A stretch of DNA of 64,000 nucleotides. Source: Escherichia phage phiSUSP1. The DNA lies in sequence record KT454805; one strand, 5' to 3'. The position numbers were made by a program, and so were the translations under genes. The number at the start of each line of letters is the position of its first letter. Within the stretch, counting starts at the first letter, position 1. This document shows, piece by piece, positions 26,320 through 63,578 of the stretch. The notes under the pieces were generated by a model, which worked only from the letters and a program-made list of their open reading frames with translations, searched no databases and had not been told where the DNA came from.

Positions 26320-26600
26320 AGAACAATGGGAAATCAAAGAACTCATTAGTGAAGCTGGAAATGGTAGTGAGATGTATATGATACGTGGTCACGTCCCAGA
26401 TGCACTTGCTATTGAAATGATTGACCACTACTCCAACGGATTCTATAAAGAATTTGGAGAGCCAAATATTGAACGTACTTGGACAAAACCAGTACCAGAT
26501 GGAACAGGGAACTGTTCAGTTATCTATCACATTGTAGACCCAAAGAAATGTAAGTCAGCTATGGCTGTAACATTTGTAACTTTTGACTGAGAGAAATATT

Positions 26601-27482
26601 ATGAAAACTATTATTCAAGTCCTGATTAATTCAAACTCTAAAGGCACTCACCAAGAGAACTTCAACATTATCCAGTTCCCTTCAGGAGAAATTGGTGGTA
26701 ACTTCTCAGAAGATTTGGTAGACTTTGTTGAACATGCTGCTGGTAAGATTGATAACGTAATCTTCACGGTACAAGGCTATGATAAAGATACACTCTTTGC
26801 ATTAGCTCTGGCTAAAGAAGCAATTGACCGTATGATTCCTCAGAAAGCAGCTATGAAGACTGTTGTCTTTGGTTTCTTACCAAATGCTAGATATGACCGT
26901 CACATGTTTAAAGGTGATGCAGCAGCACTTAAAGCATTTGCAAATCTTGTAAACGCTATGGAGTTTGATGCAATTTGTGCTCTGGATGCTCATAGTAACG
27001 TGGCAGAGAATCTATTTAAGTGCTTCTACAACCTACCTCAAAAAGAGGCAGCAGTACACTTTGCAAGTGACCCACGAATTGATTACTTAGTGGCTCCAGA
27101 TGCAGGTGCAGCTAAGAAGACTGAAGAAGCTGCTAAGGATGTTGAGAAGCCTTATATCACAATGGCTAAGGTGCGTAACCTGAAAACTGGTGAAATCACT
27201 GGTATGCGAATCCTTGATGACGTAGATTTAACAGGCAAGACTGTCATGATTCTGGATGATATCTGTGACGGTGGTCGTACCTTCATTGAGGCTGCAAAGT
27301 ATCTTCGTGAAGCTGGTGCAGAACGTGTAGAACTGTATGTCACTCATGGGATTTTCTCTAAAGGTGTTGAAAATCTTCTTGACAACGGTATTGACCATAT
27401 CTACACTACAAACTCACTAGGCGATGTAGAAGACCGTGGACTTTCACACTTCTCACAAGTGACTGTAGCAAACATTGAATAG
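26601..27482 (+). CDS. ribose-phosphate pyrophosphokinase family protein (Prs-like; candidate ADP-ribose pyrophosphokinase)
   Basis: VVFGFLPNARYDR resembles Prs AVIPYFGYARQDR; PRPP-binding loop TVMILDDICDGGRT resembles CVLVDDMIDTGGT; THGIFS resembles THPIFS. Confidence 0.85.
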   Translation: MKTIIQVLINSNSKGTHQENFNIIQFPSGEIGGNFSEDLVDFVEHAAGKIDNVIFTVQGYDKDTLFALALAKEAIDRMIPQKAAMKTVVFGFLPNARYDRHMFKGDAAALKAFANLVNAMEFDAICALDAHSNVAENLFKCFYNLPQKEAAVHFASDPRIDYLVAPDAGAAKKTEEAAKDVEKPYITMAKVRNLKTGEITGMRILDDVDLTGKTVMILDDICDGGRTFIEAAKYLREAGAERVELYVTHGIFSKGVENLLDNGIDHIYTTNSLGDVEDRGLSHFSQVTVANIE

Positions 27483-27490
27483 GTAACAAG

Positions 27491-27982
27491 ATGGATAAGG
27501 GTTACTTTGAAAAATACCTAAGATACGAACCAGAGACAGGTTTGTTAATTTGGAAAGTAACCCTTTGTAGCACCGCTATTGCTGGTAATGTGGCTGGCAC
27601 AAGGTCTAAGAAGGGTTATATCCAAGTTCAGATAAACAAGAAGAGGTACTATGCACACAATATCGCATGGATTCTATCTGGAGGTGAGATACCAAGTGGA
27701 TATGAGATAGACCACATAGACCTTGACAAGACAAATAATAAGTTGGAAAACTTAAGACTGAGTACAAAGTCACAAAACCAAAGAAATAGAGGTATACAAA
27801 AGAACAACAAAACTGGCGTGAAGGGTGTAAGTGTATGTACACAGACAGGTCTTTATAAAGCAAGAGTGATGCTTTATCATAAAGAATACTTTTGCGGAAG
27901 ATTTAAAACGCTAGAAGAAGCGAAAGAAGCTGTAATTAAAAAACGATTAGAACTTCATGGTAAGTTTGCAAGACATAACTAA
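27491..27982 (+). CDS. HNH homing endonuclease with AP2 domain
   Basis: YYAHNIAWILSGG...IDHIDLDKTNNKLENLR HNH_3; GVKGVS...YKARV AP2; inserted between Prs-like and NAMPT-like genes. Confidence 0.8.
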   Translation: MDKGYFEKYLRYEPETGLLIWKVTLCSTAIAGNVAGTRSKKGYIQVQINKKRYYAHNIAWILSGGEIPSGYEIDHIDLDKTNNKLENLRLSTKSQNQRNRGIQKNNKTGVKGVSVCTQTGLYKARVMLYHKEYFCGRFKTLEEAKEAVIKKRLELHGKFARHN

Positions 27983-27998
27983 TAGAGAGATATAAAAT

Positions 27999-29816
27999 AT
28001 GAGTAAATCACTTTACGCAGTACCAGCAGGTCTTAATGCAGATGCTTACAAGTCATCACACATCTACCAGTATCCAGATGCTACTCAGTATCTTATGCTG
28101 AATTTAACGCCTCGTGGAGACAAATGGTTTAACTCTCCATTAGAAATTGATGGTGTTGTAGCATTTGGTATTCAGCGTTTTGTAAAAGACTATCTGGTAG
28201 ACCACTGGAATGCAACGTTCTTTGAACGTGATAAGAAAGAAGCCATTGACGAAATCTTGGAAATCATGAATGGTGTACTTGGTGCAGATGCCATTGGTCG
28301 TCAACATTGGGAAGAACTTCATGACTTAGGTTATCTGCCTGTTGAAGTCTACTCTGTAGAGGAAGGTACAATTGTCCCTATGCGTGTCCCGATGATTATA
28401 TTCAAAAACACTGTAGAGGGCTTCCATTGGGTAGCTGGTTATCTCGAAGATGCTTTCTCTGCTGAAATCTGGAAAGCTTGTACAATTGCAACTATTGCAC
28501 TACATTACAAACGTATTTGTAAGAAGTGGTCAGATTTGACCTGTGATAACGACTTCCATCTTCCTTGGCAGTGTCATGACTTTGCAATGCGTGGTATGTC
28601 TGGATTCACAGATGATGCGTTTAACGCAGTAGGTCACCTGACAAGTTTTAAAGGTACTGACAGCTTCCCTGCTGTATACACAGCTAAACGTGCATATGGT
28701 CAGTTTATGACTGTAAGTGATATCGGGAACTCTGTACCAGCAACTGAACACTCTGTGATGTGTGCAAACATCTCATGGAATAGTTGTGCCAAAGAAGTAA
28801 GTGATTGGCATCTGCTACAGTCTGACAACTTGTTAGATGCAATGCGTTGGCGTGGTGAGGTAGAAACTTTCCAACGTCTTCTGACAGAAGTCTACCCAAC
28901 TGGTATTGCAAGTGTTGTATCAGATACTTACAACTTCTGGAGAACTGTTACACAGATTTTACCAGAGCTACGTAATGTGATTCTGAATCGTGATGGTAAG
29001 TTGGTAATCCGTCCAGACTCTGGAGACCCTGTTCACATTGTCACTGGTTACAAAGTCATTGAATGGGAAACTGCTAAGTCAATGTTCTATAAGCACATGA
29101 AAGGTCTTGCACCAGATAACACCCACCTGCATGATGCAATCTTGAATTGTGAAATGGCTGATATTGGCTTTGGATTATCTGCTTGGCTAATCTCTGAAGG
29201 TTATGAGATGGTTGTTGAAAATGAAGATTTTGATTATATTGATACAATCAACCTGATTACTGCTCAGAAAACTGGACAGTTTACTGTGAAGCGTATGTTA
29301 ACAGCAGAAATTGATGGAGCTATCCACACGCTGTATAACATCTTTGGTGGTACTGTTAACTCCAAAGGGTACAAAGTACTGGATGAGCACATTGGACTAA
29401 TCTACGGTGATTCTATCACTTTGGAAAGGGCTAATGAGATTCTATCACGTCTTGCTGATAAAGGTTTTGCAAGTTCTAACGTAGTGTTTGGTGTAGGTTC
29501 ATACACCTATCAGTACCTGACTCGTGATACCTTTGCATTTGCTGTTAAAGCAACTCTTGCACAGATGGACGGTCAAGAAATCATGCTGGCTAAAGACCCT
29601 AAAACAGATAGTGGTCTGAAGAAATCTGCTTTTGGTGGAGTCATCCCTATGTGGGACGGTGATAAGCTGGAAGCTGTAGATGGTTTTGGTTTTGCAGAGT
29701 TTGAAGGTGCAATTGAGAATTGTCAGAGCGCTTTGAAACTGGTATTTAGCAACTCACAACCTTATGGTTATGTTAATCTACGTGATGTACGAAATACTAT
29801 TGACAAGCAACTTTAA
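27999..29816 (+). CDS. nicotinamide phosphoribosyltransferase family protein (NAMPT-like; candidate Namat)
   Basis: NADAYKSSHIYQYP, FKGTDS, SVPATEHS, VVSDTYNFW, IRPDSGDP match human NAMPT ATDSYKVTHYKQYP, FKGTDT, SVPAAEHS, VVSDSYDIY, IRPDSGNP; 605 aa, longer than canonical. Confidence 0.9.
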   Translation: MSKSLYAVPAGLNADAYKSSHIYQYPDATQYLMLNLTPRGDKWFNSPLEIDGVVAFGIQRFVKDYLVDHWNATFFERDKKEAIDEILEIMNGVLGADAIGRQHWEELHDLGYLPVEVYSVEEGTIVPMRVPMIIFKNTVEGFHWVAGYLEDAFSAEIWKACTIATIALHYKRICKKWSDLTCDNDFHLPWQCHDFAMRGMSGFTDDAFNAVGHLTSFKGTDSFPAVYTAKRAYGQFMTVSDIGNSVPATEHSVMCANISWNSCAKEVSDWHLLQSDNLLDAMRWRGEVETFQRLLTEVYPTGIASVVSDTYNFWRTVTQILPELRNVILNRDGKLVIRPDSGDPVHIVTGYKVIEWETAKSMFYKHMKGLAPDNTHLHDAILNCEMADIGFGLSAWLISEGYEMVVENEDFDYIDTINLITAQKTGQFTVKRMLTAEIDGAIHTLYNIFGGTVNSKGYKVLDEHIGLIYGDSITLERANEILSRLADKGFASSNVVFGVGSYTYQYLTRDTFAFAVKATLAQMDGQEIMLAKDPKTDSGLKKSAFGGVIPMWDGDKLEAVDGFGFAEFEGAIENCQSALKLVFSNSQPYGYVNLRDVRNTIDKQL

Positions 29817-34283: not shown

Positions 34284-34315
34284 TGTCTGCATGTTTAACA
34301 AAATAGGAGTGCAAA

Positions 34316-34863
34316 TGAAGAAATTTGTTTTAGGTTTGTGCTTATTCTTTACAGCACATTTAGCTACAGCATCTGACTGTCCAGAACTTACAATCAGCCA
34401 GAAAGTAAATATGTTAAAAGCATATAACTATGGCGAAGGACAGATGGGAAAAGGTTGGGGAATCCCTTTAGCAGCTATAGCCTTACAAGAGTCACAATTA
34501 GGTGTCATGTTAGAAAATAAAAGGACTCATGATTATGGTGTTTTCCAGAATCACTTGAAGACTGTTGTAAAGCGTAACAAAGTATCTCCAAAGGTTGCTA
34601 AGAAGAAGTTGGTAAGTGACTTCCATTACTCAGCAAAAGAGGCTCATAAAGAGTTGCTATTCTGGACAAAGGTTCACGGTAACCCAGATGGAAAGTACTC
34701 TATGAAGCGTGTCCTAGCTTCTTATAATGCTGGTTACAAATATAAGATTCCAAAGGCTAGACAATACTCTCAAGATGTGTACAATAACATGAAACTGCTT
34801 GCTCAATGTGAGTTTGCAACAAACATTAAAAAGGTAAAATATGAGCGAATCAAAACAATTTGA
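34316..34863 (+). CDS. secreted lytic transglycosylase-like protein
   Basis: signal peptide MKKFVLGLCLFFTAHLATA; AIALQESQLG...HDYGVFQ resembles SLT catalytic ES/Q motifs. Confidence 0.5.
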
Positions 34864-35536
34864 TACGGTTCTGTGTCATGCTTATGATATCAAACCACTT
34901 GATTTAGATATCAGTTCTGCAAGCTGGTCAGACGTTGCTAAAGCTGACTTTGCAGATACAGCAAGATATGTTGCGTGTAGCTTTGAAGACTTTCATTCAA
35001 CAAAGACACAGATTCCTTGTCAAGATTTGCTAACAGGTAAAACTGTGTATGTAGGTCGCAATAGTCTTATCTTGGTTGCAAAGAACTTGGAAGAAAAACG
35101 TAAGATGGTCTTAGCAGATATTGACGGTGTTCTTACAAGCTTTGATAAGAAACTTAACGCAACCTTGTTAGATGATGGTACTTACTCACAGTACACTAAC
35201 TTGGTAGACTCTCGCAGAGCTAAACCAACTTATGTTTTTAACATTCTGTGTGGTATATCACAAAATGCTGATATAGGATTCTTAACTGCTCGTGGTGAAT
35301 CTCAAAGAGTGGTCACTCACCTCTTCCTGAATGAAAATGTAGACAGTAACTTCTTACTGTTTATGCGTGGATTTGGTGACAATGAAATTAGTGCAGAAAG
35401 TTTGAAAGTTCGTATGCTTCAGTCTTGCATTCTACCTTACTATGATGTAGTATGCTTTATAGAAGATACAGTAAAGAACGTGGCAAAGGTTGAAAGAATC
35501 TTACCACACATCAAAACAATGCTTGTTAAAAACTGA
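34841..35536 (+). CDS. HAD-like hydrolase candidate
   Basis: MVLADIDGVL resembles HAD motif I DxDG; FLTARG and FIEDT as motifs II and IV; weak. Confidence 0.3.
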   Translation: MSESKQFDTVLCHAYDIKPLDLDISSASWSDVAKADFADTARYVACSFEDFHSTKTQIPCQDLLTGKTVYVGRNSLILVAKNLEEKRKMVLADIDGVLTSFDKKLNATLLDDGTYSQYTNLVDSRRAKPTYVFNILCGISQNADIGFLTARGESQRVVTHLFLNENVDSNFLLFMRGFGDNEISAESLKVRMLQSCILPYYDVVCFIEDTVKNVAKVERILPHIKTMLVKN

Positions 35537-37730: not shown

Positions 37731-37962
37731 AAAGACCAGAAAAGCCCTTAGTGGGGCAATCTTTGTAGGTCGCCAAGAAGTAATTCCTTTTGGTGCAAAG
37801 ATTTATGAAGGTTCTGTATTAGCACATAGTCATTTCAAAAATGACAATTTGAAACATTATGTATATGGGATTTACCGAAGTGAGACATTGGAAGAGTACA
37901 AACAACGCCAATATCAAGCTTACAAAGATGTATTCTTCCAAGAGGTAATCTCAAATGGCTGA
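37705..37962 (+). CDS. hypothetical small protein
   Basis: 85-aa ORF. Confidence 0.3.
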   Translation: MKAIITRCKKTRKALSGAIFVGRQEVIPFGAKIYEGSVLAHSHFKNDNLKHYVYGIYRSETLEEYKQRQYQAYKDVFFQEVISNG

Positions 37963-38155
37963 TTTCTGCACTAAGTGTTCTATTGAGATGTTTGGTAAAG
38001 ATACAGGAGACTTAAAAGGTCTCTTTACAAAAGCAGAGTTTGAGGCTGGTTCAGCAATGCCAGTAATCTGTGAAGGTTGTGGTGCTTCATGGGTAGACCA
38101 TGAAGGTAACCGAGTTAAACCCTCTGAAGACAACGAACGTTGGGAGCATTATTAA
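37955..38155 (+). CDS. small Zn-ribbon protein
   Basis: CTKCS...CEGCG. Confidence 0.35.
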   Translation: MADFCTKCSIEMFGKDTGDLKGLFTKAEFEAGSAMPVICEGCGASWVDHEGNRVKPSEDNERWEHY

Positions 38156-38156
38156 T

Positions 38157-38951
38157 ATGGGTATCGTAAAGATTATTAAAGGTGATATCTTTAAAGACTT
38201 TGATAATAAGAAGTTTGATATTATTGGTCACGGTTGTAACTGTATGAACTTAATGGGTGCAGGTATTGCAGCAACAATTGCTAAACGCTACCCAAAAGTT
38301 TATGAGACTGATGCTGAAGTTTATACCACAGTAGGTGGTCAAGACCATAAACCTAAGCATATAATGCTTGGCAATATCTCTGTAGCACGTTTTAAGCAGG
38401 GTCGAATTGCTAACCTTTACACTCAGATTATCACTGGTAAAGATGCACGATACAATGCTTTAGAAGCAGCTTTGCAGCGTCTTAACAATTACTGCAAAGT
38501 AAACCAGCTTAAGAAAGTTGGACTTCCTATGATTGGTGCAGGGATTGGTGGTCTTGACAGCATGGCTGTGCTGTCTATCATCAATCAGACCATGAAAGAT
38601 GTTGACGTTTATATGTATGTCTATGAAGATAAGATGTACAGTCAGTTGACTAGTCCGGTTACTGGTTGGGAAAACTTTAGTGAACCTCAATACTTTGATG
38701 GTGTTGCCGTGGTAGGCAAGGATAAAGTTACCCTCAAGGTGAAGCGTAATGGCAAGGTACACACTAGTTACCCTCCGGTTGAGAAGTACAATCGAAGTAA
38801 CGCTCAAGTTACCCACCCGTTACAAGGCCATTGTCACAGAGCCGTAACATTTGGTGATGATGCAAGTGTGTATATCTGTGCTGCTACAGAAGAGTTTGCA
38901 GAGGATTATACCACACATGAAAACGTTAACTATGTTGAAGCACATAACTAA
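38157..38951 (+). CDS. macrodomain protein (ADP-ribose binding/processing) with C-terminal extension
   Basis: IIKGDIF...DIIGHGCNCMNLMGAGIAATIAKRYP and GLPMIGAGIGGL resemble macro-domain Gly-rich ADPR-binding loops; GGGAG RBS before ATG 38157. Confidence 0.6.
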   Translation: MGIVKIIKGDIFKDFDNKKFDIIGHGCNCMNLMGAGIAATIAKRYPKVYETDAEVYTTVGGQDHKPKHIMLGNISVARFKQGRIANLYTQIITGKDARYNALEAALQRLNNYCKVNQLKKVGLPMIGAGIGGLDSMAVLSIINQTMKDVDVYMYVYEDKMYSQLTSPVTGWENFSEPQYFDGVAVVGKDKVTLKVKRNGKVHTSYPPVEKYNRSNAQVTHPLQGHCHRAVTFGDDASVYICAATEEFAEDYTTHENVNYVEAHN

Positions 38952-38975: not shown

Positions 38976-39023
38976 AAGCCCTCCAAAGTTTGAGTTTAAA
39001 ATCTCAGGTAAGGAGGGCTTTTT
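38976..39023 (+). terminator. rho-independent terminator (long hairpin)
   Basis: AGCCCTCC...GGAGGGCT followed by TTTTT after the macrodomain gene. Confidence 0.5.
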
Positions 39024-39205
39024 CATTTCAAATTTGTGCAGGTGAAATTGCATAGAACTCTGGACAGATTTCTTTAGCTGAACTCCAAAGAGAAAATTCA
39101 TTTCCAATTTGTGCAGGTCTAGACTCCAAAGGGCTTTTTCATTTTCAATCTGTGCAGATGCAGTTGGACTCCAAAGGGAAAATTCATTTTCAATTTGTGC
39201 AGGTA
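39015..39205 (+). repeat. four tandem degenerate ~45-bp repeats (promoter-like)
   Basis: 4 copies of ACTCCAAAGGG-(A/T)4-TTCATTTYCAATYTGTGCAGRT. Confidence 0.6.
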
Positions 39206-57848: not shown

Positions 57849-57925
57849 CTCCGTTTAGCTCAGTTTGGTAGAGTGCGCCGTTTGGGGCGGTGAGGTCGAA
57901 GGTTCAATCCCTTCAACGGAGACCA
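57849..57925 (+). tRNA. tRNA-Pro (anticodon TGG)
   Basis: acceptor CTCCGTT/AACGGAG, T-arm GGTTCAATCC, loop TTTGGGG; CCA encoded. Confidence 0.75.
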
Positions 57926-57932
57926 AATTAAT

Positions 57933-58010
57933 GTTCCAGTAGACAAATTGGTAAAGTCACCACACTTTCAATGTGGAGTTTTGAGGGTTCAAGTCCCTTC
58001 TGGAACGCCA
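57933..58010 (+). tRNA. tRNA-Glu (anticodon TTC)
   Basis: acceptor GTTCCAG/CTGGAAC, T-arm GAGGGTTCAAGTCCCTT, loop CTTTCAA. Confidence 0.75.
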
Positions 58011-58017
58011 AATTTGA

Positions 58018-58082
58018 CAGAAGACCAAGTACAGCAAATAACTTTACTTTTCGCGCATAGAAAACTTAAAAGTTTGGTCTGG
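58018..58082 (+). ncRNA. inverted-repeat-bounded inter-tRNA element E1
   Basis: CAGAAGACCAA...TTGGTCTGG, 7-bp closing stem AGACCAA/TTGGTCT. Confidence 0.4.
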
Positions 58083-58093
58083 TCATAAAAGTT

Positions 58094-58170
58094 CGCGGGT
58101 ATAGAGAAAGGGCGTCTCACATGTCTCATTAGCATGGTATCGGCAGGTTCGACTCCTGCACCCGCCTCCA
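58094..58170 (+). tRNA. tRNA-Met/Ile2 (anticodon CAT)
   Basis: T-arm GCAGGTTCGACTCCTGC, loop CTCATTA, 3' ACCCGCC-T-CCA; 5' boundary uncertain. Confidence 0.6.
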
Positions 58171-58176
58171 AATTTG

Positions 58177-58239
58177 CAGAAGACCGTTTACAGCAATCTC
58201 AAAAATTTTTATCGGAAAAAATGAAAAGATACGGTCTGG
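58177..58239 (+). ncRNA. inverted-repeat-bounded inter-tRNA element E2
   Basis: CAGAAGACCGT...ACGGTCTGG, 7-bp closing stem. Confidence 0.4.
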
Positions 58240-58252
58240 CAATACTAAACAT

Positions 58253-58329
58253 GGTGAGGAAGCACATAAGGCATGTGCGGTCGGCTGTTAACCGAATGGT
58301 ATAGGGTTCGAATCCCTAACTCACCGCCA
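58253..58329 (+). tRNA. tRNA-Asn (anticodon GTT)
   Basis: D-arm GCAC-ATAAGGCAT-GTGC, loop CTGTTAA, T-arm TAGGGTTCGAATCCCTA, CCA encoded. Confidence 0.75.
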
Positions 58330-58399
58330 AGATTTGGGAGAGAAGCGTAATGCTCACCGATTTGTAAGGTGTAAGTCCTTAGCCTGAATAGAATAAAAT

Positions 58400-58487
58400 G
58401 CGTCGTTATCCCGTAGATGGAAGCGGTGGTGACTGTAAATCACTTGTCATTATGACTCGGTAGGTTCGACTCCTTCACGGCGCACCA
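58400..58487 (+). tRNA. tRNA-Tyr (anticodon GTA), class II
   Basis: 88 nt with long variable arm; loop CTGTAAA; acceptor GCGTCGT/ACGGCGC. Confidence 0.7.
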
Positions 58488-58493
58488 AATAAA

Positions 58494-58571
58494 GGTTATG
58501 TAGTTTAATCTGGTTAAAATACCTCACTGTCACTGAGGAAGATGAGGGTTCAAATCCCTTCGTAACCGCCA
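58494..58571 (+). tRNA. tRNA-Asp (anticodon GTC)
   Basis: anticodon arm CCTCA-CTGTCAC-TGAGG; T-arm GAGGGTTCAAATCCCTT. Confidence 0.75.
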
Positions 58572-58632
58572 ATTTTGAGAGGGCTTTCTAGCCCCTCCCT
58601 TAAAGAGTTCTTACGAGTATTCTTTAAAGGAG

Positions 58633-58709
58633 CAGAAGACCAAATTCAGCAAGCCAACTTAAAAAATTTCAAGCCAATTTAATTTTGAAAAATTTAAAAC
58701 TTGGTCTGG
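58633..58709 (+). ncRNA. inverted-repeat-bounded inter-tRNA element E3
   Basis: CAGAAGACCAA...TTGGTCTGG closing stem. Confidence 0.4.
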
Positions 58710-58722
58710 CTCAACAAATTTA

Positions 58723-58849
58723 CAGAAGACCGTTTACAGCAAGTATAAAACAATCTATTTCTCTGGTAAAGAAAAGGAGAAGGTTCGATTCCTTCACACG
58801 TTACGGCGTGTTGGTGTAATGGTAGCACTTAAGATAAACAACGGTCTGG
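58723..58849 (+). ncRNA. structured element E4 with tRNA-like T-arm (Y-RNA-like candidate)
   Basis: closing stem AGACCGT/ACGGTCT; internal hairpins GAAGG-TTCGATT-CCTTC (T-arm-like), ACACG-TTACGG-CGTGT, GTGT-AATGGTA-GCAC (D-arm-like); no anticodon arm. Confidence 0.4.
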
Positions 58850-58998
58850 TAATCCTCTTTGCAGTGACTTATGGAGCTAAATGTCGTCCCATGAGTGCCG
58901 ATGAATTTCCTTAGCATGATTCTAGATTAGCTTAATAGGAAATGACTCTACAAACCCTTTAGCAAGGTTTGCGTAGGTTACTGCAAAGATGATTTAAT

Positions 58999-59074
58999 GG
59001 GGGTGTAGCAGAAAGGTGATGCGGCAGACTTTTAATCTGACAGGCGACGGGTTCGAATCCCTCCACTCCCACCA
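58999..59074 (+). tRNA. tRNA-Lys (anticodon TTT)
   Basis: acceptor GGGGGTG/CACTCCC, loop CTTTTAA, T-arm GACGGGTTCGAATCCC. Confidence 0.7.
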
Positions 59075-59078
59075 ATAT

Positions 59079-59155
59079 GGTTCAGTCGCAGATAAGGTAA
59101 TGCAAGGGTTTCATAAGCCCTATGAATGTGGGTTCGAATCCCATCTGAACCTCCA
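59079..59155 (+). tRNA. tRNA-Met/Ile2 (anticodon CAT), second copy
   Basis: acceptor GGTTCAG/CTGAACC, loop TTCATAA, T-arm GTGGGTTCGAATCCCAT. Confidence 0.7.
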
Positions 59156-59156
59156 A

Positions 59157-59232
59157 GCTGGTATAGTTAAGAAGGTTATAACACTCCCCTGATAAGGGAA
59201 CATCGGTGGTTCGATTCCACCTACCAGTACCA
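59157..59232 (+). tRNA. tRNA-Ile (anticodon GAT)
   Basis: loop CTGATAA, T-arm GGTGGTTCGATTCCACC, acceptor GCTGGTA/TACCAGT. Confidence 0.7.
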
Positions 59233-59247
59233 ATTTCAATAAAGTTG

Positions 59248-59276
59248 TTGACATGGAGATGTGACTACTTTATAGT
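59248..59276 (+). promoter_or_regulatory. sigma70-like promoter inside tRNA cluster
   Basis: TTGACA-N17-TATAGT. Confidence 0.6.
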
Positions 59277-59509
59277 AGCCTTAGTTTTCGTTAGCGTAGC
59301 GTCTATTTTGCAAACTTAAAAATAAATGCAAACGATAATGCTTTTCTGGCAGTAGCTTAATAGGCTAAACACCAGTGAGGTCTTCCAATTCCTCATCAAA
59401 GAATTTGGCGTACTCGCCCACGGTATGATTAATAAGGTGGGCAACATTCTAAAGGGTATCCCGTATGGGGCTTGGCTTAAATGCAATGAGTACCCTTTAA
59501 AATGTTAAT

Positions 59510-59586
59510 GCACCCTTAGTTCAATTGGATAGAGCAAGTGCCTTCTAAGCACTGAGTTACAGGTTCGAGTCCTGTAGGGTGTGCCA
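59510..59586 (+). tRNA. tRNA-Arg (anticodon TCT)
   Basis: anticodon arm AGTGC-CTTCTAA-GCACT, T-arm ACAGGTTCGAGTCCTGT. Confidence 0.75.
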
Positions 59587-59593
59587 GTTTAAT

Positions 59594-59715
59594 GGTCAAG
59601 ACAACACTAGTAAGCCATCTGGATACATGTTAACAGATGTACGAAAGTCGGAAAGTTGCTGAAGGTTAGCTACCTTCGAGAGTAAGTAGGTTCGACTCCT
59701 ACCTTGACTGCCAAA
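59594..59715 (+). ncRNA. atypical tRNA-like element (possible pseudogene or insertion-containing tRNA)
   Basis: perfect T-arm GTAGG-TTCGACT-CCTAC and 3' CTTGACT-G-CCA pairing with GGTCAAG ~120 nt upstream; no canonical D-arm. Confidence 0.3.
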
Positions 59716-59849
59716 TAGTTAGCAGATTACTTAGACGACCTTAGCGGGTCTCCGTGTTGATTCAGATGAGTCAACTTCATAAGGAGGTGGTCTGTATCTC
59801 ATGTTTTCCAGAACATGTAAATAATCTGAGAAGAGGCTTGACAGTGTTG

Positions 59850-59878
59850 TGACAATACGGTAAGCTTCGAATTATAGT
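59850..59878 (+). promoter_or_regulatory. sigma70-like promoter
   Basis: TGACAA-N17-TATAGT upstream of tRNA-Trp and HNH gene. Confidence 0.5.
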
Positions 59879-59884
59879 GTTAAT

Positions 59885-59955
59885 AGGGGTGAGCTAAGGC
59901 AGCAATAGAGTCTCCAAAATTCTTGATTAGAGTTCGAATCTCTACACCCCTGCCA
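59885..59955 (+). tRNA. tRNA-Trp (anticodon CCA), short D-arm
   Basis: acceptor AGGGGTG/CACCCCT, loop CTCCAAA, T-arm TAGAGTTCGAATCTCTA; 71 nt. Confidence 0.6.
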
Positions 59956-59969
59956 GAATAGGTACTTGT

Positions 59970-60374
59970 ATGAAACTTTGTAGAAAATGCTCACAAGAAA
60001 AACCTTTAAGTTGTTTTCATAAGCGTGGTAATGGATACCAGTCAGTATGCAAAGATTGCAAATCCAAATACTCTTCTAAGAAGTATCAAGAAGACCCAAC
60101 TTATAAAGCTAAAAGGAAAATTAGGGCGGTAGCTGACAGAAAAAGAAACAGAGAGTTTCTTAACCGATACAAAAGAATCTGCAAATGCAGAGTTTGTGGT
60201 GAATCTGAACCAGTAGCATTAGACTTCCACCATTTAGACCCAAATGAAAAAGACTTTGAACCTAGCAATTTAAAGACTTACTCTAGAGGGACTATTAAGA
60301 GAGAAGTTAGAAAATGTGTTGTACTGTGTTCTAACTGTCATAGGAAAGTTCATGCAGGACTGTTAGAGGTTTAA
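59970..60374 (+). CDS. HNH endonuclease inside tRNA cluster
   Basis: Cys pairs CRKC...CKDC...CRVC and DFHHLDPN...LCSNCHRKVH HNH motif. Confidence 0.7.
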   Translation: MKLCRKCSQEKPLSCFHKRGNGYQSVCKDCKSKYSSKKYQEDPTYKAKRKIRAVADRKRNREFLNRYKRICKCRVCGESEPVALDFHHLDPNEKDFEPSNLKTYSRGTIKREVRKCVVLCSNCHRKVHAGLLEV

Positions 60375-60388
60375 CAGTCTTATTAGGG

Positions 60389-60475
60389 GTAGATAGCGGC
60401 TAATGGAAGCCAAATTGTCTTGAAAACAATTGCCATTGTAGTGATACGGTGAGGGTTCGACTCCTTTATCTACCG
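60389..60475 (+). tRNA. tRNA-Ser (anticodon TGA), class II
   Basis: 87 nt with long variable arm; anticodon arm ATTGT-CTTGAAA-ACAAT; CCA not encoded. Confidence 0.65.
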
Positions 60476-60628
60476 CCTAATGAGATTTAAGCCCACGCTC
60501 TGGTACAGCGTTCGGTTTCCCTCGTGTATTGTCGTACACGCACAACAAAGCACCTAGTAGGTGTCACGGAGAAGAGATAATATCAAGCTCTCCAAAGGTT
60601 CTAGTCACCGGATTAAACAAGACTATGC

Positions 60629-60648
60629 AAAGACCAGTTAGGTCTTTT
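60629..60648 (+). terminator. rho-independent terminator
   Basis: AAGACC-AGTTA-GGTCTT followed by TTT; ends a ~150-nt structured non-tRNA segment. Confidence 0.5.
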
Positions 60649-60718
60649 TAGAGAATTGTTAAGGCATTTGATACCATTGTTGCTTTGGCGTCTTAGCAGT
60701 TCTCTACAAAGATTTAAT

Positions 60719-60796
60719 GGGAGATTGACGGTAATTGGTAAACCTACCATCCTTAGAAGTTGGTGTTTGAGGGTTCGAATCCCTTGTCTCCTACCA
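60719..60796 (+). tRNA. tRNA with anticodon read as TAG, class I
   Basis: acceptor GGGAGAT/GTCTCCT-A-CCA, T-arm GAGGGTTCGAATCCCTT; anticodon arm CCATC-CTTAGAA-GTTGG is a 1-nt variant of the Val tRNA arm. Confidence 0.5.
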
Positions 60797-60803
60797 AATT
60801 AAT

Positions 60804-60879
60804 GCAGGTGTAGCAAAATGGTTATGCGGCTGACTCTTAATCAGTAAGACGATGGGTTCAATTCCCTCCACCTGTACCA
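60804..60879 (+). tRNA. tRNA-Lys (anticodon CTT)
   Basis: paralog of tRNA-Lys(TTT); loop CTCTTAA with compensatory stem change. Confidence 0.6.
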
Positions 60880-60885
60880 AATATT

Positions 60886-60961
60886 GGGGTTGTAGTTTAA
60901 ATGGTTAAAACATAAGTTTTGCAAACTTAAGTACAGGGTTCGATTCCCTGCTTCTCCACCA
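60886..60961 (+). tRNA. tRNA-Cys-like (anticodon GCA), imperfect acceptor stem
   Basis: anticodon arm AAGTT-TTGCAAA-AACTT, T-arm CAGGGTTCGATTCCCTG; two U-U mismatches in acceptor; possible pseudogene. Confidence 0.4.
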
Positions 60962-60967
60962 ATTAGT

Positions 60968-61042
60968 GCATCCATAGTTTAAACGGGAAAATTACAGTCT
61001 TCCAAACTGAGGTTGAGGGTTCGATTCCCTCTGGATGCTCCA
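60968..61042 (+). tRNA. tRNA-Gly (anticodon TCC)
   Basis: acceptor GCATCCA/TGGATGC perfect; loop CTTCCAA. Confidence 0.75.
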
Positions 61043-61049
61043 AATTAAT

Positions 61050-61125
61050 GCTCCTATCGTATAATTGGCTATTACGGTTGCCTTGTAAGCAACTTATCAG
61101 GGTTCGAATCCTTGTGGGAGCACCA
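61050..61125 (+). tRNA. tRNA-Thr (anticodon TGT)
   Basis: anticodon arm GTTGC-CTTGTAA-GCAAC; acceptor GCTCCTA/TGGGAGC. Confidence 0.75.
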
Positions 61126-61221
61126 ATTCAGAGGTCGAGTGAAAGACCGCTTGAGTCAACTGAAGACCGTAACAAATTCCACGGAGTTGAGTTAGCGGCA
61201 CAACTTCAGACCTCTTTTCAT

Positions 61222-61296
61222 ACTCGCTTAGTTTATACGGTAAAGCCCCATCCTTACAAGTTGGTGAAGAAGGTTCAAGTCCTTCAGCGAGTACCA
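61222..61296 (+). tRNA. tRNA-Val (anticodon TAC)
   Basis: loop CTTACAA as in E. coli tRNA-Val; acceptor ACTCGCT/AGCGAGT; T-arm GAAGGTTCAAGTCCTTC. Confidence 0.7.
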
Positions 61297-61298
61297 AT

Positions 61299-61376
61299 GT
61301 TCCAGTATCCCAATTGGCAGAGGATGCAAGCTCAAACCTTGTATTAGTGACGGTTCGAATCCGTCTTGGAACACCA
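61299..61376 (+). tRNA. tRNA with anticodon read as CAA, class I
   Basis: acceptor GTTCCAG/TTGGAAC-A-CCA; anticodon arm GCAAG-CTCAAAC-CTTGT; T-arm GACGGTTCGAATCCGTC. Confidence 0.5.
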
Positions 61377-61392
61377 ATTTTAGGAGATTCCT

Positions 61393-61605
61393 ATGAAGCC
61401 TTATGGTAGACACGGTAAAGTTGAAATTGCAAGTTGTGGTTGCTGTGCTTCTCACGATGGTGAAGAAGATTACTACAAGTGGCGTACAGACCATCGTAGA
61501 CGCTTTCTCAGAAGAGATAAGAAGAGAGCTAGACAGGAATCTCAAAAGAACATTGCAGAATTAGTTCAAATGGATAGAGCAGCAGCCTACGAAGTTGCTT
61601 GTTAG
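61393..61605 (+). CDS. small basic Cys-containing protein; 3' end overlaps tRNA-Arg
   Basis: AGGAG RBS 7 nt before ATG; 70 aa; last ~50 nt overlap tRNA 61555-61631. Confidence 0.25.
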   Translation: MKPYGRHGKVEIASCGCCASHDGEEDYYKWRTDHRRRFLRRDKKRARQESQKNIAELVQMDRAAAYEVAC

Positions 61606-61631
61606 GGGTTCGAATCCCTTATTCTGCACCA
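61555..61631 (+). tRNA. tRNA-Arg (anticodon ACG)
   Basis: acceptor GCAGAAT/ATTCTGC perfect; anticodon arm GCAGC-CTACGAA-GTTGC. Confidence 0.7.
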
Positions 61632-61650
61632 ATTTAAAGAGGCTATTTAA

Positions 61651-62208
61651 ATGAGATATTTGAAGTATGCTTCATGGATTTTCCTAGCTTTGCTAGAGCC
61701 ATTTGCAGCAATCTTAGCAGTAATCTTAGCACCCTTTGTGGTTCCATTCTACAGTGAGAGGAAAGGTCACTTACCTTTTGGATTCAGATGGATGGAAACT
61801 TATGATAACCCGATTGACGGTGACAAAGGTCACGTTGAGCGATGGGCTAAGATTCGAAAGATTGGTAAGCTCGGTGTTTATATGCAGAGAGTTGGATGGC
61901 TCTGGAGAAACAAAGCTTATAACTTCTCTTACCATGTATTAGGAAGAGATGTAAAAGATGTTACTAAGTGGAAAGGTAATATCAACGTAAGTTCTAACCC
62001 TGAAGATAAACAGACAGGTTATCTCCTGATGTGGAACAGTAATGCTTGGGGTTTATTCGCTTTTATCCCGTCAATTAAAATCTTTGGTAAACAATTTTAC
62101 TGGAGAATTTATGTTGGTTGGAAACTTAAAAGTGTTGTCCCAGAAGAAAGAGCATTTTCAAGGGAAAGAATTATGTTGGCATTCTTTATTCATCCACTAA
62201 GAAAGTAA
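61651..62208 (+). CDS. hypothetical protein with N-terminal hydrophobic helix
   Basis: AAGAGG RBS; WIFLALLEPFAAILAVILAPFVV; 185 aa inside tRNA cluster. Confidence 0.4.
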   Translation: MRYLKYASWIFLALLEPFAAILAVILAPFVVPFYSERKGHLPFGFRWMETYDNPIDGDKGHVERWAKIRKIGKLGVYMQRVGWLWRNKAYNFSYHVLGRDVKDVTKWKGNINVSSNPEDKQTGYLLMWNSNAWGLFAFIPSIKIFGKQFYWRIYVGWKLKSVVPEERAFSRERIMLAFFIHPLRK

Positions 62209-62216
62209 AGATTTAA

Positions 62217-62292
62217 AGGGGATTAGTTTACAAGGTTAAAACCTCGGTCTTTGAAATCGAAGAAGTTGGTTCAATTCCAACATCCCCCGCCA
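62217..62292 (+). tRNA. tRNA-Gln (anticodon TTG)
   Basis: anticodon arm TCGGT-CTTTGAA-ATCGA; T-arm GTTGGTTCAATTCCAAC; A1-C72 mismatch. Confidence 0.65.
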
Positions 62293-62294
62293 AT

Positions 62295-62373
62295 GCTCCA
62301 TTACTCCAATTGGCAGAGAGGCCAGACTTAAAATCTGTGTTATGTATCGGTTCGAATCCGATATGGAGTACCA
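62295..62373 (+). tRNA. tRNA with anticodon read as TAA
   Basis: acceptor GCTCCAT/ATGGAGT-A-CCA; loop CTTAAAA in a Lys-tRNA-like arm; 7-nt variable loop. Confidence 0.5.
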
Positions 62374-62380
62374 AATTAAT

Positions 62381-62456
62381 AGCAGTGTAGCATAACTGGC
62401 AATGCTCCAGCCTCTGAAGCTGAAAGATTAAGGTTCAAATCCTTACGCTGCTGCCA
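62381..62456 (+). tRNA. tRNA-Gln (anticodon CTG)
   Basis: anticodon arm CAGC-CTCTGAA-GCTG; T-arm TAAGGTTCAAATCCTTA. Confidence 0.65.
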
Positions 62457-62487
62457 CTTCTAAGGGTTCTTACGAGAGTCCTTACAT

Positions 62488-62564
62488 GTGTCCTTATCAT
62501 AAATGGATAATGACCCATGCTGTGAACATGGTCTATACGGGTTCGATTCCCGTAGGTCACCCCA
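62488..62564 (+). tRNA. tRNA-His (anticodon GTG)
   Basis: D-arm TCAT-AAATGGATA-ATGA, anticodon arm CCATG-CTGTGAA-CATGG, discriminator C73. Confidence 0.7.
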
Positions 62565-62572
62565 AATTTAAT

Positions 62573-62648
62573 GGGTTAAGTAGCTTATATGGTTAAAGCG
62601 CGTGTCTGAAAAACATGAGAAGAGGGTTCAAATCCCACTAACCCGCCA
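62573..62648 (+). tRNA. tRNA-Phe (anticodon GAA)
   Basis: anticodon arm CGTGT-CTGAAAA-ACATG; acceptor GGGTTAA/CTAACCC. Confidence 0.6.
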
Positions 62649-62665
62649 ATTTCAAAAGGTGCTTA

Positions 62666-63400
62666 ATGAAAGAGATGACAGAACAAGGTAAAGAGATTTT
62701 TAATCTCCTGAAATCCGGTAACGGGTTTTCTAACCCTCTTATTACTGGTGCAGCAATCCTTGGTGGCACAATTGCCGCTTCTACTTCATTAGTAAGCTCT
62801 ATTAGCTCGGTATCAGACCCTACAGTAAAAGATAAACTTATTGCTGCTGGTTTGACTACAGCCTTGTTAAGTAGCTTCTCAACGAGCCTTGGAAGCACTA
62901 CAACGACAACTAACACTTTGACTCAATACGGGCAGAAGTCTGTAGATGAGTTCTCATCACGTATGCAGGTAGCTAAAGGTTACTCTAACGTTATGGGTGC
63001 AGCAGGAGAACAAGTTGGTTGTACACCGTTTAGTGGAATCATGGGAGTAGCTACAGAGTACGGTCAAAAAGCTATGGATTTGATTAACACCTCCATAGAC
63101 ACTGTGAATGGCGTTCTAAGTGATTTGCAAGATGCAATCAACAAAGGACTAGATACTATATCTCCCTTAGCCTCACAAGCCGTTACAGCGATTAATCAGG
63201 GCATTGCTAAGATTACTGCATATGCTAATGAGGTCACTCAGATGATTGCAGATGAAGCAGCGTTAATTGCTGATTACTTGAAAACGAATATCAATGGTTT
63301 CCTTGCAGGTATCTTACCAGACTGGTTTGATGATGCTTGTAAAACTGGCGTGATTGATTCAATCGCAACTCCAGAGATGAAGGATGCCTTGAATAAATAA
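62666..63400 (+). CDS. hypothetical Ser/Thr/Ala-rich protein
   Basis: 244-aa ORF between tRNA-Phe and tRNA-Ser. Confidence 0.4.
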   Translation: MKEMTEQGKEIFNLLKSGNGFSNPLITGAAILGGTIAASTSLVSSISSVSDPTVKDKLIAAGLTTALLSSFSTSLGSTTTTTNTLTQYGQKSVDEFSSRMQVAKGYSNVMGAAGEQVGCTPFSGIMGVATEYGQKAMDLINTSIDTVNGVLSDLQDAINKGLDTISPLASQAVTAINQGIAKITAYANEVTQMIADEAALIADYLKTNINGFLAGILPDWFDDACKTGVIDSIATPEMKDALNK

Positions 63401-63402
63401 TT

Positions 63403-63495
63403 GGAAGATTAACCCTAAAAGGTAAGGGAACAGTTTGCTAAACTGTCAGTAACCGAGAAATCGGCGTACCAGTTCAAGTCTGGTATCTTCCTCCA
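63403..63495 (+). tRNA. tRNA-Ser (anticodon GCT), class II
   Basis: 93 nt; acceptor GGAAGAT/ATCTTCC perfect; anticodon arm ACAGT-TTGCTAA-ACTGT; long variable arm. Confidence 0.75.
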
Positions 63496-63503
63496 ATTTA
63501 ATG

Positions 63504-63578
63504 CGTCGATGACAGAAATGGCTATGTGCCTGTCTGCAAAACAGGATTATGAGGGTTCGACTCCCTTTCGACGCTCCA
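63504..63578 (+). tRNA. tRNA-Cys (anticodon GCA)
   Basis: acceptor GCGTCGA/TCGACGC perfect; anticodon arm CCTGT-CTGCAAA-ACAGG. Confidence 0.75.

Follow-up and report, generated by a model that had tools for sequence, protein, structure and literature searches.

Phage macrodomains of the family PHROG 335 defeat two defences based on NAD+ and ADP-ribose, DarTG2 and aRES, in roles that were established in 2025-2026. In phage T4, a transposon screen found that tk.4 is the only gene needed for resistance to DarTG2, and the gene was renamed adfM; a clean knockout agrees and is specifically sensitised to DarTG2, the mechanism of T4 AdfM resting on genetics (bioRxiv 10.1101/2025.11.20.689424). The AdfM of phage PhiKZ, gp104, takes the ADP-ribose of DarT2 off DNA in vitro, and it shields chimalliviruses (PMC13309987). 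In DarG, residue K80 is essential: the mutant K80A is inactive (PMC5179494).

The other role is tied to NARP1, which was discovered in Felixounavirus Bas63, a phage of the same subfamily as the one studied here. The NAD+ phosphorylase aRES yields ADPR-1''-phosphate, which the Adpp of Vibrio phage Gary (gp137) converts to ADPR, and NARP1 then rebuilds NAD+; the activity of Adpp has been demonstrated both biochemically and genetically, Adpp is defined by a position within two genes of NARP1, and about 15% of NARP1 operons hold a Poa1p-like macrodomain (bioRxiv 10.64898/2026.01.28.702374).

We describe here a gene of the window, that is, of the whole stretch of 64,000 nucleotides of Escherichia phage phiSUSP1 that was analysed (sequence record KT454805). 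Its product joins a macrodomain, a further member of this known family, to a C-terminal domain of its own. The two-domain architecture itself is not previously described: a literature search found no published description of it.

The gene and its transcription unit

The layout of the gene and its immediate surroundings is as follows.

37955..38155, plus strand: context gene for a 66-aa four-cysteine protein (PHROG 2210, unknown function)
38142..38146, plus strand: Shine-Dalgarno-like GGGAG, 10 nt 5' of the ATG, read from the sequence
38157..38951, plus strand: coding sequence of the two-domain protein, 264 aa and a stop, from the ORF list and the sequence
38157..38627, plus strand: macrodomain of the Tk.4/AdfM-Adpp family, residues 1-157
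38628..38948, plus strand: C-terminal extension, residues 158-264, about 105 aa
38962..39034, plus strand: terminator-like hairpin and T-run 3' of the macro gene, an inverted repeat AAGCCCTCC ... GGAGGGCTTTTT with a 27-nt loop

The ATG at 38157 lies 2 nt past the stop of the upstream ORF, at 38155, and the gene ends with its own stop at 38949-38951; translation of the two genes is probably coupled. The initial annotation had placed the gene at 38157-38951; the ORF there, of 264 aa, agrees with gp013 of Citrobacter phage Mordin, which has identical start and length and is annotated as “phosphatase, contains macro domain”. ORFs overlapping the gene on the minus strand are mechanical only.

The 5 kb around the macro gene share 95.5% identity with Citrobacter phage vB_CbrM_HP1; with phages Mordin, Maleficent and Michonne and the Shigella phages Sf14-Sf19 the figure is 88-92%. 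On sequence grounds, the window is that of a Felix-O1-like myovirus of genus Mooglevirus, Ounavirinae. The gene is the final member of a plus-strand run that starts past a terminator at ~36.03 kb and includes, besides the two spanins, several small genes without assigned function, and it is predicted to close the transcription unit. Because of its long loop (27 nt), the hairpin that follows is overlooked by a simple terminator scan.

Within the window, no darT toxin gene stands beside the macro gene, which has small phage genes and spanins around it. The gene for the 66-aa four-cysteine protein adjoins the macro gene upstream in all of loci L001, L005-L032 and L084, with 70-97% identity, and its product is a possible partner of the macro protein.

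A macrodomain of the Tk.4/Adpp group

The initial annotation had recognised a macrodomain in the N-terminal part of the protein, and profile and structure comparisons agree on this. Pfam PF01661 matches residues 25-141 (E 1e-7, 32.4 bits, for a curated gathering cut-off of 22 bits), and the PHROG 335 profile matches residues 1-263 (E 1e-105). In both NCBIfam and PADLOC, the best hits are DarG models, which cover residues 5-163 with E about 1e-15; the alignment takes in the macro half only, and the full-length DarG equivalog, which includes the DarT-binding C-terminal domain, is not matched. Searches of PDB sequences return TARG1/OARD1, the DarG macrodomain and Poa1p. The earlier reading had been staked on structure prediction: the AF2 model, built with 29 homologues, has the three-layer alpha/beta/alpha macro fold (pLDDT 90.3, pTM 0.88), and the best structural matches of this fold are DarG macrodomains. 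The macrodomain assignment, which is far beyond chance, is thus confirmed. The boundaries had to be moved: the macrodomain stops at about residue 157, short of the ~170 aa first proposed, and the extension has about 105 aa instead of ~95.

The main motifs of the macrodomain are these.

38229..38243, plus strand: HGCNC motif, residues 25-29, with H25, G26 and N28 invariant
38247..38294, plus strand: first glycine-rich loop and next helix, NLMGAGIAATIAKRYP, residues 31-46, with M33, G36 and A38 invariant
38412..38426, plus strand: NLYTQ motif, residues 86-90, with N86, Y88, T89 and Q90 invariant
38520..38555, plus strand: second glycine-rich (diphosphate-binding) loop, GLPMIGAGIGGL, residues 122-133, with P124, G127 and G129 invariant

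Together, the residues named in this list are the invariant positions of the family alignment; in the first glycine-rich segment, G34, I37 and P46 are conserved at 90% or more. The motifs quoted in the initial annotation were all found, the two loops at the residues above, IIKGDIF at residues 6-12 and HCH at residues 225-227. Around the ADP-ribose pocket, HGCNC, MGAGIA, NLYTQ and IGAGIGG resemble Tk.4 more than the NARP1-adjacent macros. MGAGIA sits in the first loop, and its A35 is Tk.4-like, unlike the NARP1-adjacent macros. Residue N28 aligns with N22 of TaqDarG (PMC5179494) and with N23 of PhiKZ AdfM (PMC13309987), both of which bind ADP-ribose and support catalysis, and the second loop is equivalent to G117-G121 of TaqDarG (PMC5179494). 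With the binding loops and N28 conserved, binding or hydrolysis of ADP-ribose may be expected of this macrodomain.

In a profile alignment to TARG1, Q90 stands at the site of the catalytic Lys, which is K84 in TARG1 and K80 in TaqDarG, and D125 of TARG1 aligns with G131. Since Gln replaces the catalytic Lys, the protein is not a strict DarG/TARG1-type enzyme. The same Gln is common to T6 Tk.4 and to all the NARP1-linked macros, but PhiKZ AdfM keeps Lys.

The family PHROG 335 also takes in T6 Tk.4, Gary Adpp, the Pakpunavirus NARP1-linked macro and PhiKZ AdfM. In pairwise comparisons (blastp) with the macrodomain of the window, the NARP1-linked macro of PAK_P1 has the top score, 81 bits, at 32.7% identity; it is followed by T6 Tk.4 (38.8% identity, 70 bits, E 7e-20), Gary Adpp (30.5%, 65 bits, E 6e-18) and PhiKZ AdfM (24%, 35 bits). 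Scored with the DarG model, the window macrodomain reaches 55 bits, T6 Tk.4 25, Gary Adpp 35 and PhiKZ AdfM 138. The macro subfamily, which the initial annotation had left among MacroD, Af1521 and DarG-like types, is by these comparisons the Gln-type Tk.4/Adpp group of PHROG 335. The two functions considered at that stage, reversal of a DarT-like modification and release of ADP-ribose for an NAD+ pathway, are both supported for the protein by homology, since each activity has been shown for a member of PHROG 335, Tk.4 for the one and Adpp for the other.

The C-terminal extension and its distribution

Two short segments of the extension are referred to below.

38679..38702, plus strand: SEPQYFDG, residues 175-182, where conservation within the extension is highest
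38829..38837, plus strand: HCH, residues 225-227, not conserved

The extension is predicted to open with a linker helix (158-164) and an extended conserved segment; residues 182-252 then form six beta-strands and one helix, and the tail is acidic. Its pLDDT is 80-92 by block in the full model, with a mean of 80 when it is modelled alone. The conserved segment reads W-x-N-x-S-E-P-Q-Y-F-D-G, in which P177 and G182 do not vary within the clade. The initial annotation had singled out HCH, which is indeed present but without significance: in the corresponding columns of 37 two-domain sequences, residue 225 is N in 20 and H in 6, residue 226 is H in 22 and C in 4, and residue 227 is R in 21 and H in 5, for a majority motif of N-H-R. 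A metal or catalytic motif was rejected on this lack of conservation, and a metal site is unlikely.

The extension had been called uncharacterised, and this description holds: neither fold nor sequence yields a relative. A BFVD fold search with the extension returns its own family only; Pfam, NCBIfam and PADLOC give no match, and the PDB sequences nothing credible. When 1.84 billion representative proteins were searched by profile, the extension turned up only as a macro fusion, with one exception of 114 aa (P0032). This sole short hit is encoded by the 3' half of a two-domain gene broken by a frameshift, and a free-standing extension was rejected. Also rejected were the blades of PQQ/BamB beta-propellers, whose scores (E about 1e-4 summed over repeats, E 0.018) were judged to be beta-hairpin pattern noise, and an origin in a gene flanking tk.4 in T-even phages, the hhalign probability being 0.1% for both neighbours in T6.

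A codon analysis reveals purifying selection on both parts of the protein: the median omega is 0.12 in the macrodomain and about 0.30 in the extension, the latter median being taken over the pairs with usable dS, and the closest pairs have values of 0.06-0.15 for the extension. Non-synonymous divergence is 2.4 times higher in the extension than in the macrodomain, and omega is below 1 throughout; positive selection on the extension was not seen. A conserved charge, as for DNA binding or DNA mimicry, was looked for and not found, the net charge of the extension varying between -4 and +5 within the clade.

A homologous macrodomain occurs in 2633 phage records, of which about 240 cover >80% of the query and have the full-length two-domain protein; the surrounding 5-kb region is matched by 256. 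The two-domain proteins of the phage records, and those metagenomic ones whose contigs have sufficient length for a judgement, are on contigs of ~84-94 kb, the size of Ounavirinae. One divergent member, of the 33-48% identity class, has rIIB and a PNK-like gene on its 5' side, an arrangement shared with the window, and the version in the phiEa21-4 group is strongly diverged. Names in databases are generic: phosphatase, macro domain-containing protein and O-acetyl-ADP-ribose deacetylase.

In an NJ tree of 58 non-redundant family members, all the two-domain proteins form one clade, with a bootstrap of 42%. The tree gives no resolved sister group, so that the choice between a Tk.4 and an Adpp clade is not decided by phylogeny. 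The NARP1-adjacent macros are scattered over this tree, and that of phiAbaA1 groups with macros from T4-sized contigs.

Given the predicted fold, the absence of relatives, the restricted distribution and the purifying selection, the extension is best regarded as a true orphan domain with a single origin by acquisition. The analogy with the two-domain DarG, together with the consideration that a metabolite phosphatase would hardly need an extra domain, suggests that it may be a targeting or partner-binding module.

Substrate and role

The phage carries two further genes that bear on the role of the macrodomain.

26583..27482, plus strand: Prs-like gene, candidate Adps of NARP1 (Pfam Pribosyltran, Pribosyl_synth)
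27999..29816, plus strand: NAMPT-like gene, candidate Namat of NARP1 (Pfam NAPRTase, NAMPT_N)

Homologues of the Prs-like protein are encoded by the NARP1 phages SPbetaL1, Pakpunavirus and KIT04, and an HNH homing endonuclease splits the pair. An upstream NAD+ pathway based on ADPR had already been suspected, and the two genes, with their NARP1 make-up, are candidates for it. They are 8.3 kb away from the macro gene and in a separate unit, with more than 10 genes between, including rIIA/B-like ones; the macro gene is not within two genes of Adps or Namat. ADPR freed by the macrodomain could be consumed by the Adps candidate.

Our preferred reading, to which we give a probability of roughly one half, is that the protein is a DNA de-ADP-ribosylase of the AdfM type, directed against DarT2 and equipped with an accessory domain for targeting or binding. 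The macrodomain would grip the ADP-ribose moiety through HGCNC, both glycine-rich loops and T89, and would hydrolyse an ADP-ribose conjugate; the likeliest substrate would be the ADP-ribose that host DarT2-type toxins put on thymidines of single-stranded phage DNA. The enzyme would then work as an orphan antitoxin like T4 Tk.4/AdfM, and replication would be restored. Since Gln90 replaces the nucleophilic Lys, a lysyl-ADPr intermediate as in DarG/TARG1 is precluded, and the chemistry would be whatever Tk.4 and Adpp share. The freed ADP-ribose might serve as substrate for the NARP1 candidate genes of the phage itself. The beta-rich accessory module, presumably gained once, in the ancestor of the phage group, would most likely target the enzyme to a macromolecular substrate or a partner.

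The argument for this AdfM-type role comes from the pocket, in which macros on T4-sized contigs were compared with NARP1-adjacent macros. In all the two-domain proteins G26, A35, I130 and the invariant T89 are Tk.4-like: the clade has HG and not HQ, GAG and not GSG, T89 against a mix of G, T and S, and GAGI and not GxGL. The loop past Q90 also has the length found in Tk.4, versus the longer, aromatic-rich loop of Adpp. The DarG-type fold matches, and the family PHROG 335 and 38.8% identity shared with Tk.4, point in the same direction, as do a DarG-model score above those of T6 Tk.4 and Gary Adpp, and the position of the gene outside the NARP1 operon. The added domain fits a macromolecular substrate or partner better than a small metabolite, as comparison with the two-domain DarG suggests (PMC5179494), and it is a real, selected domain, the two-domain form being near-universal at the matching region (about 240 versus 256 records).

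However, several observations speak against this role. The Lys that is essential in DarG is Gln, and Gln-type de-ADP-ribosylation has genetic support alone, from T4; similarity to the NARP1-linked macros (81 and 65 bits) is about equal to that with T6 Tk.4 (70 bits); the sister group in the NJ tree and the 42% bootstrap of the two-domain clade give no help; and the variable net charge of the extension lends no simple support to DNA binding or mimicry. The phage also has NARP1 candidates, which would fit an Adpp role. A serious though less likely rival is an ADPR-1''-phosphate phosphatase of the Adpp type that would act in trans, turning the product of the RES-type NAD+ phosphorylase aRES into ADP-ribose for NARP1 (Adps and Namat, at 26.6-29.8 kb). 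Such an activity has biochemical and genetic precedent in Gary Adpp, a member of PHROG 335 that is 30.5% identical to the window macrodomain; the PAK_P1 macro tops the blastp comparison, the Gln at the DarG Lys position is common to all these proteins, the Prs-like and NAMPT-like pair is typical of NARP1, as in Felixounavirus Bas63, and the scatter of NARP1-adjacent macros in the tree, with the example of phiAbaA1, implies that Tk.4-like macros can serve NARP1. Yet the distance of 8.3 kb and the separate unit sit badly with a definition of Adpp by position within two genes, and G26, A35, T89, I130 and the short loop after Q90 are those of Tk.4, not of the HQxNC, GSG, YGQYxY and GxGL consensus. 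Moreover, a phosphatase of small molecules has no evident need of an extra domain of 105 aa, and none is present among the listed Adpps. The phosphatase role is compatible with a role against DarT2, free ADPR being the product either way.

Macrodomains are generally promiscuous, and one database name of these proteins is O-acetyl-ADP-ribose deacetylase. It can thus be asked whether the protein reverses some other ADP-ribosylation, of protein or RNA, whether made by host ART defences such as CmdT-like mRNA ARTs or by phage ARTs, or deacetylates O-acetyl-ADP-ribose. This is distinctly unlikely: the catalytic pair of TARG1, K84/D125, is replaced by Q90/G131, there is no experimental precedent within PHROG 335, and the database names are transferred annotations. 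The missing DarG/TARG1 nucleophile could also signal a non-catalytic binder that sequesters molecules derived from ADP-ribose, either immune signals or ADPr-marked targets, with the C-terminal domain for oligomerisation or as an extra binding surface. Phage sponges for ADPR-derived Thoeris signals are reported (10.64898/2026.05.28.727677), but the PHROG 335 family offers no sponge precedent. A relative with the same Gln is catalytic, since Gary Adpp turns over ADPR-1P, and N28 and both glycine loops, which are required for catalysis in relatives, are invariant; a pure binder is very improbable.

A bolder proposal concerns the extension itself, which might be an inhibitor or adaptor of new fold that binds a host defence protein, such as DarT2 or another NAD+-consuming effector, or else the replisome or ssDNA. 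In that case the whole protein would amount to a “complete antitoxin” reached by convergence, both eraser enzyme and stoichiometric binder, like DarG but with an unrelated domain, and the released ADP-ribose would go straight to NARP1. We hold this to be rather a long shot. A confident fold, purifying selection yet 2.4 times faster evolution, and no occurrence elsewhere are compatible with it.

Comparison with known systems

Felix-O1-like phages are in common use for therapy against, and typing of, Salmonella, E. coli, Shigella and Citrobacter, and almost all those that match the macro region carry the two-domain version, with its extra domain without known relative. The macro gene is a candidate host-range determinant against strains that carry DarTG or RES systems. 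The binding target of the extension would reveal whether phages have re-invented the two-pronged strategy of DarG, in which the mark is erased and the toxin blocked; it would also bear on the choice of substrate, ADPr-DNA or ADPR-1''-P, in a family without the canonical catalytic lysine.

Among cellular proteins, human TARG1/OARD1 has K84/D125 where the window protein has Q90/G131, and it is a single-domain enzyme. Yeast Poa1p, of the Poa1p-like macro subfamily, is also a single-domain cellular enzyme, and its residue at the position equivalent to Q90 is presumably Ser. Bacterial DarG (PDB 5m3i, 7omu) is the antitoxin of DarTG2, and its catalytic Lys corresponds to Gln90 in the window protein.

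Among the phage proteins, PhiKZ AdfM is likewise an orphan macrodomain and shares the conserved Asn (N23, equivalent to N28), but it keeps the Thr-Lys of the DarG type, is a one-domain protein and is taken up by the phage nucleus. The Adpps share the H-x-C/A-N-C motif, the Gln, the Poa1p-like fold and 30-33% identity with the window protein, and NARP1-type genes are present in both phages. However, Adpp is a single domain encoded inside the NARP1 operon, whereas the window gene is 8.3 kb off, and the Adpps mostly have the HQ, GSG, YGQY and GxGL variants and a longer loop past the Gln. To our knowledge, T4 is without NARP1. The Tk.4 of T4 and T6 is an orphan macrodomain with no toxin alongside, as is the window protein; HGCNC, MxAG, NLYTQ and IGAGIG are identical in the two, the Gln stands at the DarG Lys site in both, and the loop after it is of equal length. 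The difference is in architecture: with its 155 aa, Tk.4 consists of one domain, to which the window protein adds a C-terminal domain of 105 aa.

Neighbours of the macro gene

Two features flank the macrodomain gene (38157-38951, plus strand):

37955-38155, plus strand: 66-amino-acid protein with two CxxC pairs, a member of PHROG 2210
39001-39204, intergenic, just 3' of the macro gene: four direct repeats of about 43 nucleotides each, with core TTCATTTYCAATTTGTGCAGGT and a spacing of 41-75 nucleotides

The stop of the 66-amino-acid gene lies 2 nucleotides 5' of the macro start codon, and the gene is found directly 5' of the two-domain macro gene in all Mooglevirus-, Felixounavirus- and Suspvirus-like loci examined; it is absent from phiEa21-4-like loci. 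Across the loci that carry it, its product is 70-97% identical, a higher conservation than that of the macro protein, and it may be a functional partner of the latter. The direct repeats, which overlap a small minus-strand ORF annotated as a hypothetical protein in the related Citrobacter phage Mordin, could be regulatory elements or promoters.

The C-terminal domain and other tails

The macro gene itself contains a strong promoter-like match, shortly 5' of the segment that encodes the C-terminal domain:

38554-38581, plus strand: sigma-70-like match TTGACA-16-TATCAT, 11 of 12 positions

In one metagenomic contig (L084, 291-1069), a frameshift splits the macro gene into two overlapping ORFs, a macro ORF of 162 amino acids and a C-terminal one of 114.

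Two other macrodomain proteins of PHROG 335, the phage family of the window protein, also carry tails. The first, of 249 amino acids (L060, 4001-4750, on an 87-kb contig), has a lysine-rich, helical tail; that of the second (L067, match from 4001) differs from it. Both are unrelated to the tail of the window protein, and the family appears to have gained accessory C-terminal regions repeatedly.

Other loci in the window

27491-27982, plus strand: HNH_3 homing-endonuclease ORF
34291-35536, plus strand, 3' of rIIA/rIIB: RegB-like/lysozyme-like protein and HAD-type polynucleotide kinase
57849-63578, plus strand: cluster of 25 tRNA genes covering most amino acids

The HNH_3 ORF sits between the Prs-like gene (Adps candidate, 26583-27482) and the NAMPT-like gene (Namat candidate, 27999-29816), so that the putative NARP1 pair, which would rebuild NAD+, is interrupted by its insertion. 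The two ORFs at 34291-35536 are named by correspondence with the Mordin annotation; a Pfam search of both gave no match at E 0.001.

Subtypes among known phage macrodomains

In the family alignment, Tk.4 (AdfM) of T4 and T6 (T6 locus L002, 2438-2905) and Adpp of phage Gary have a glutamine at the position of the essential catalytic lysine of DarG/TARG1, whereas PhiKZ AdfM retains that lysine. The two proteins called AdfM, Tk.4 and that of PhiKZ, are therefore mechanistically different macro subtypes.
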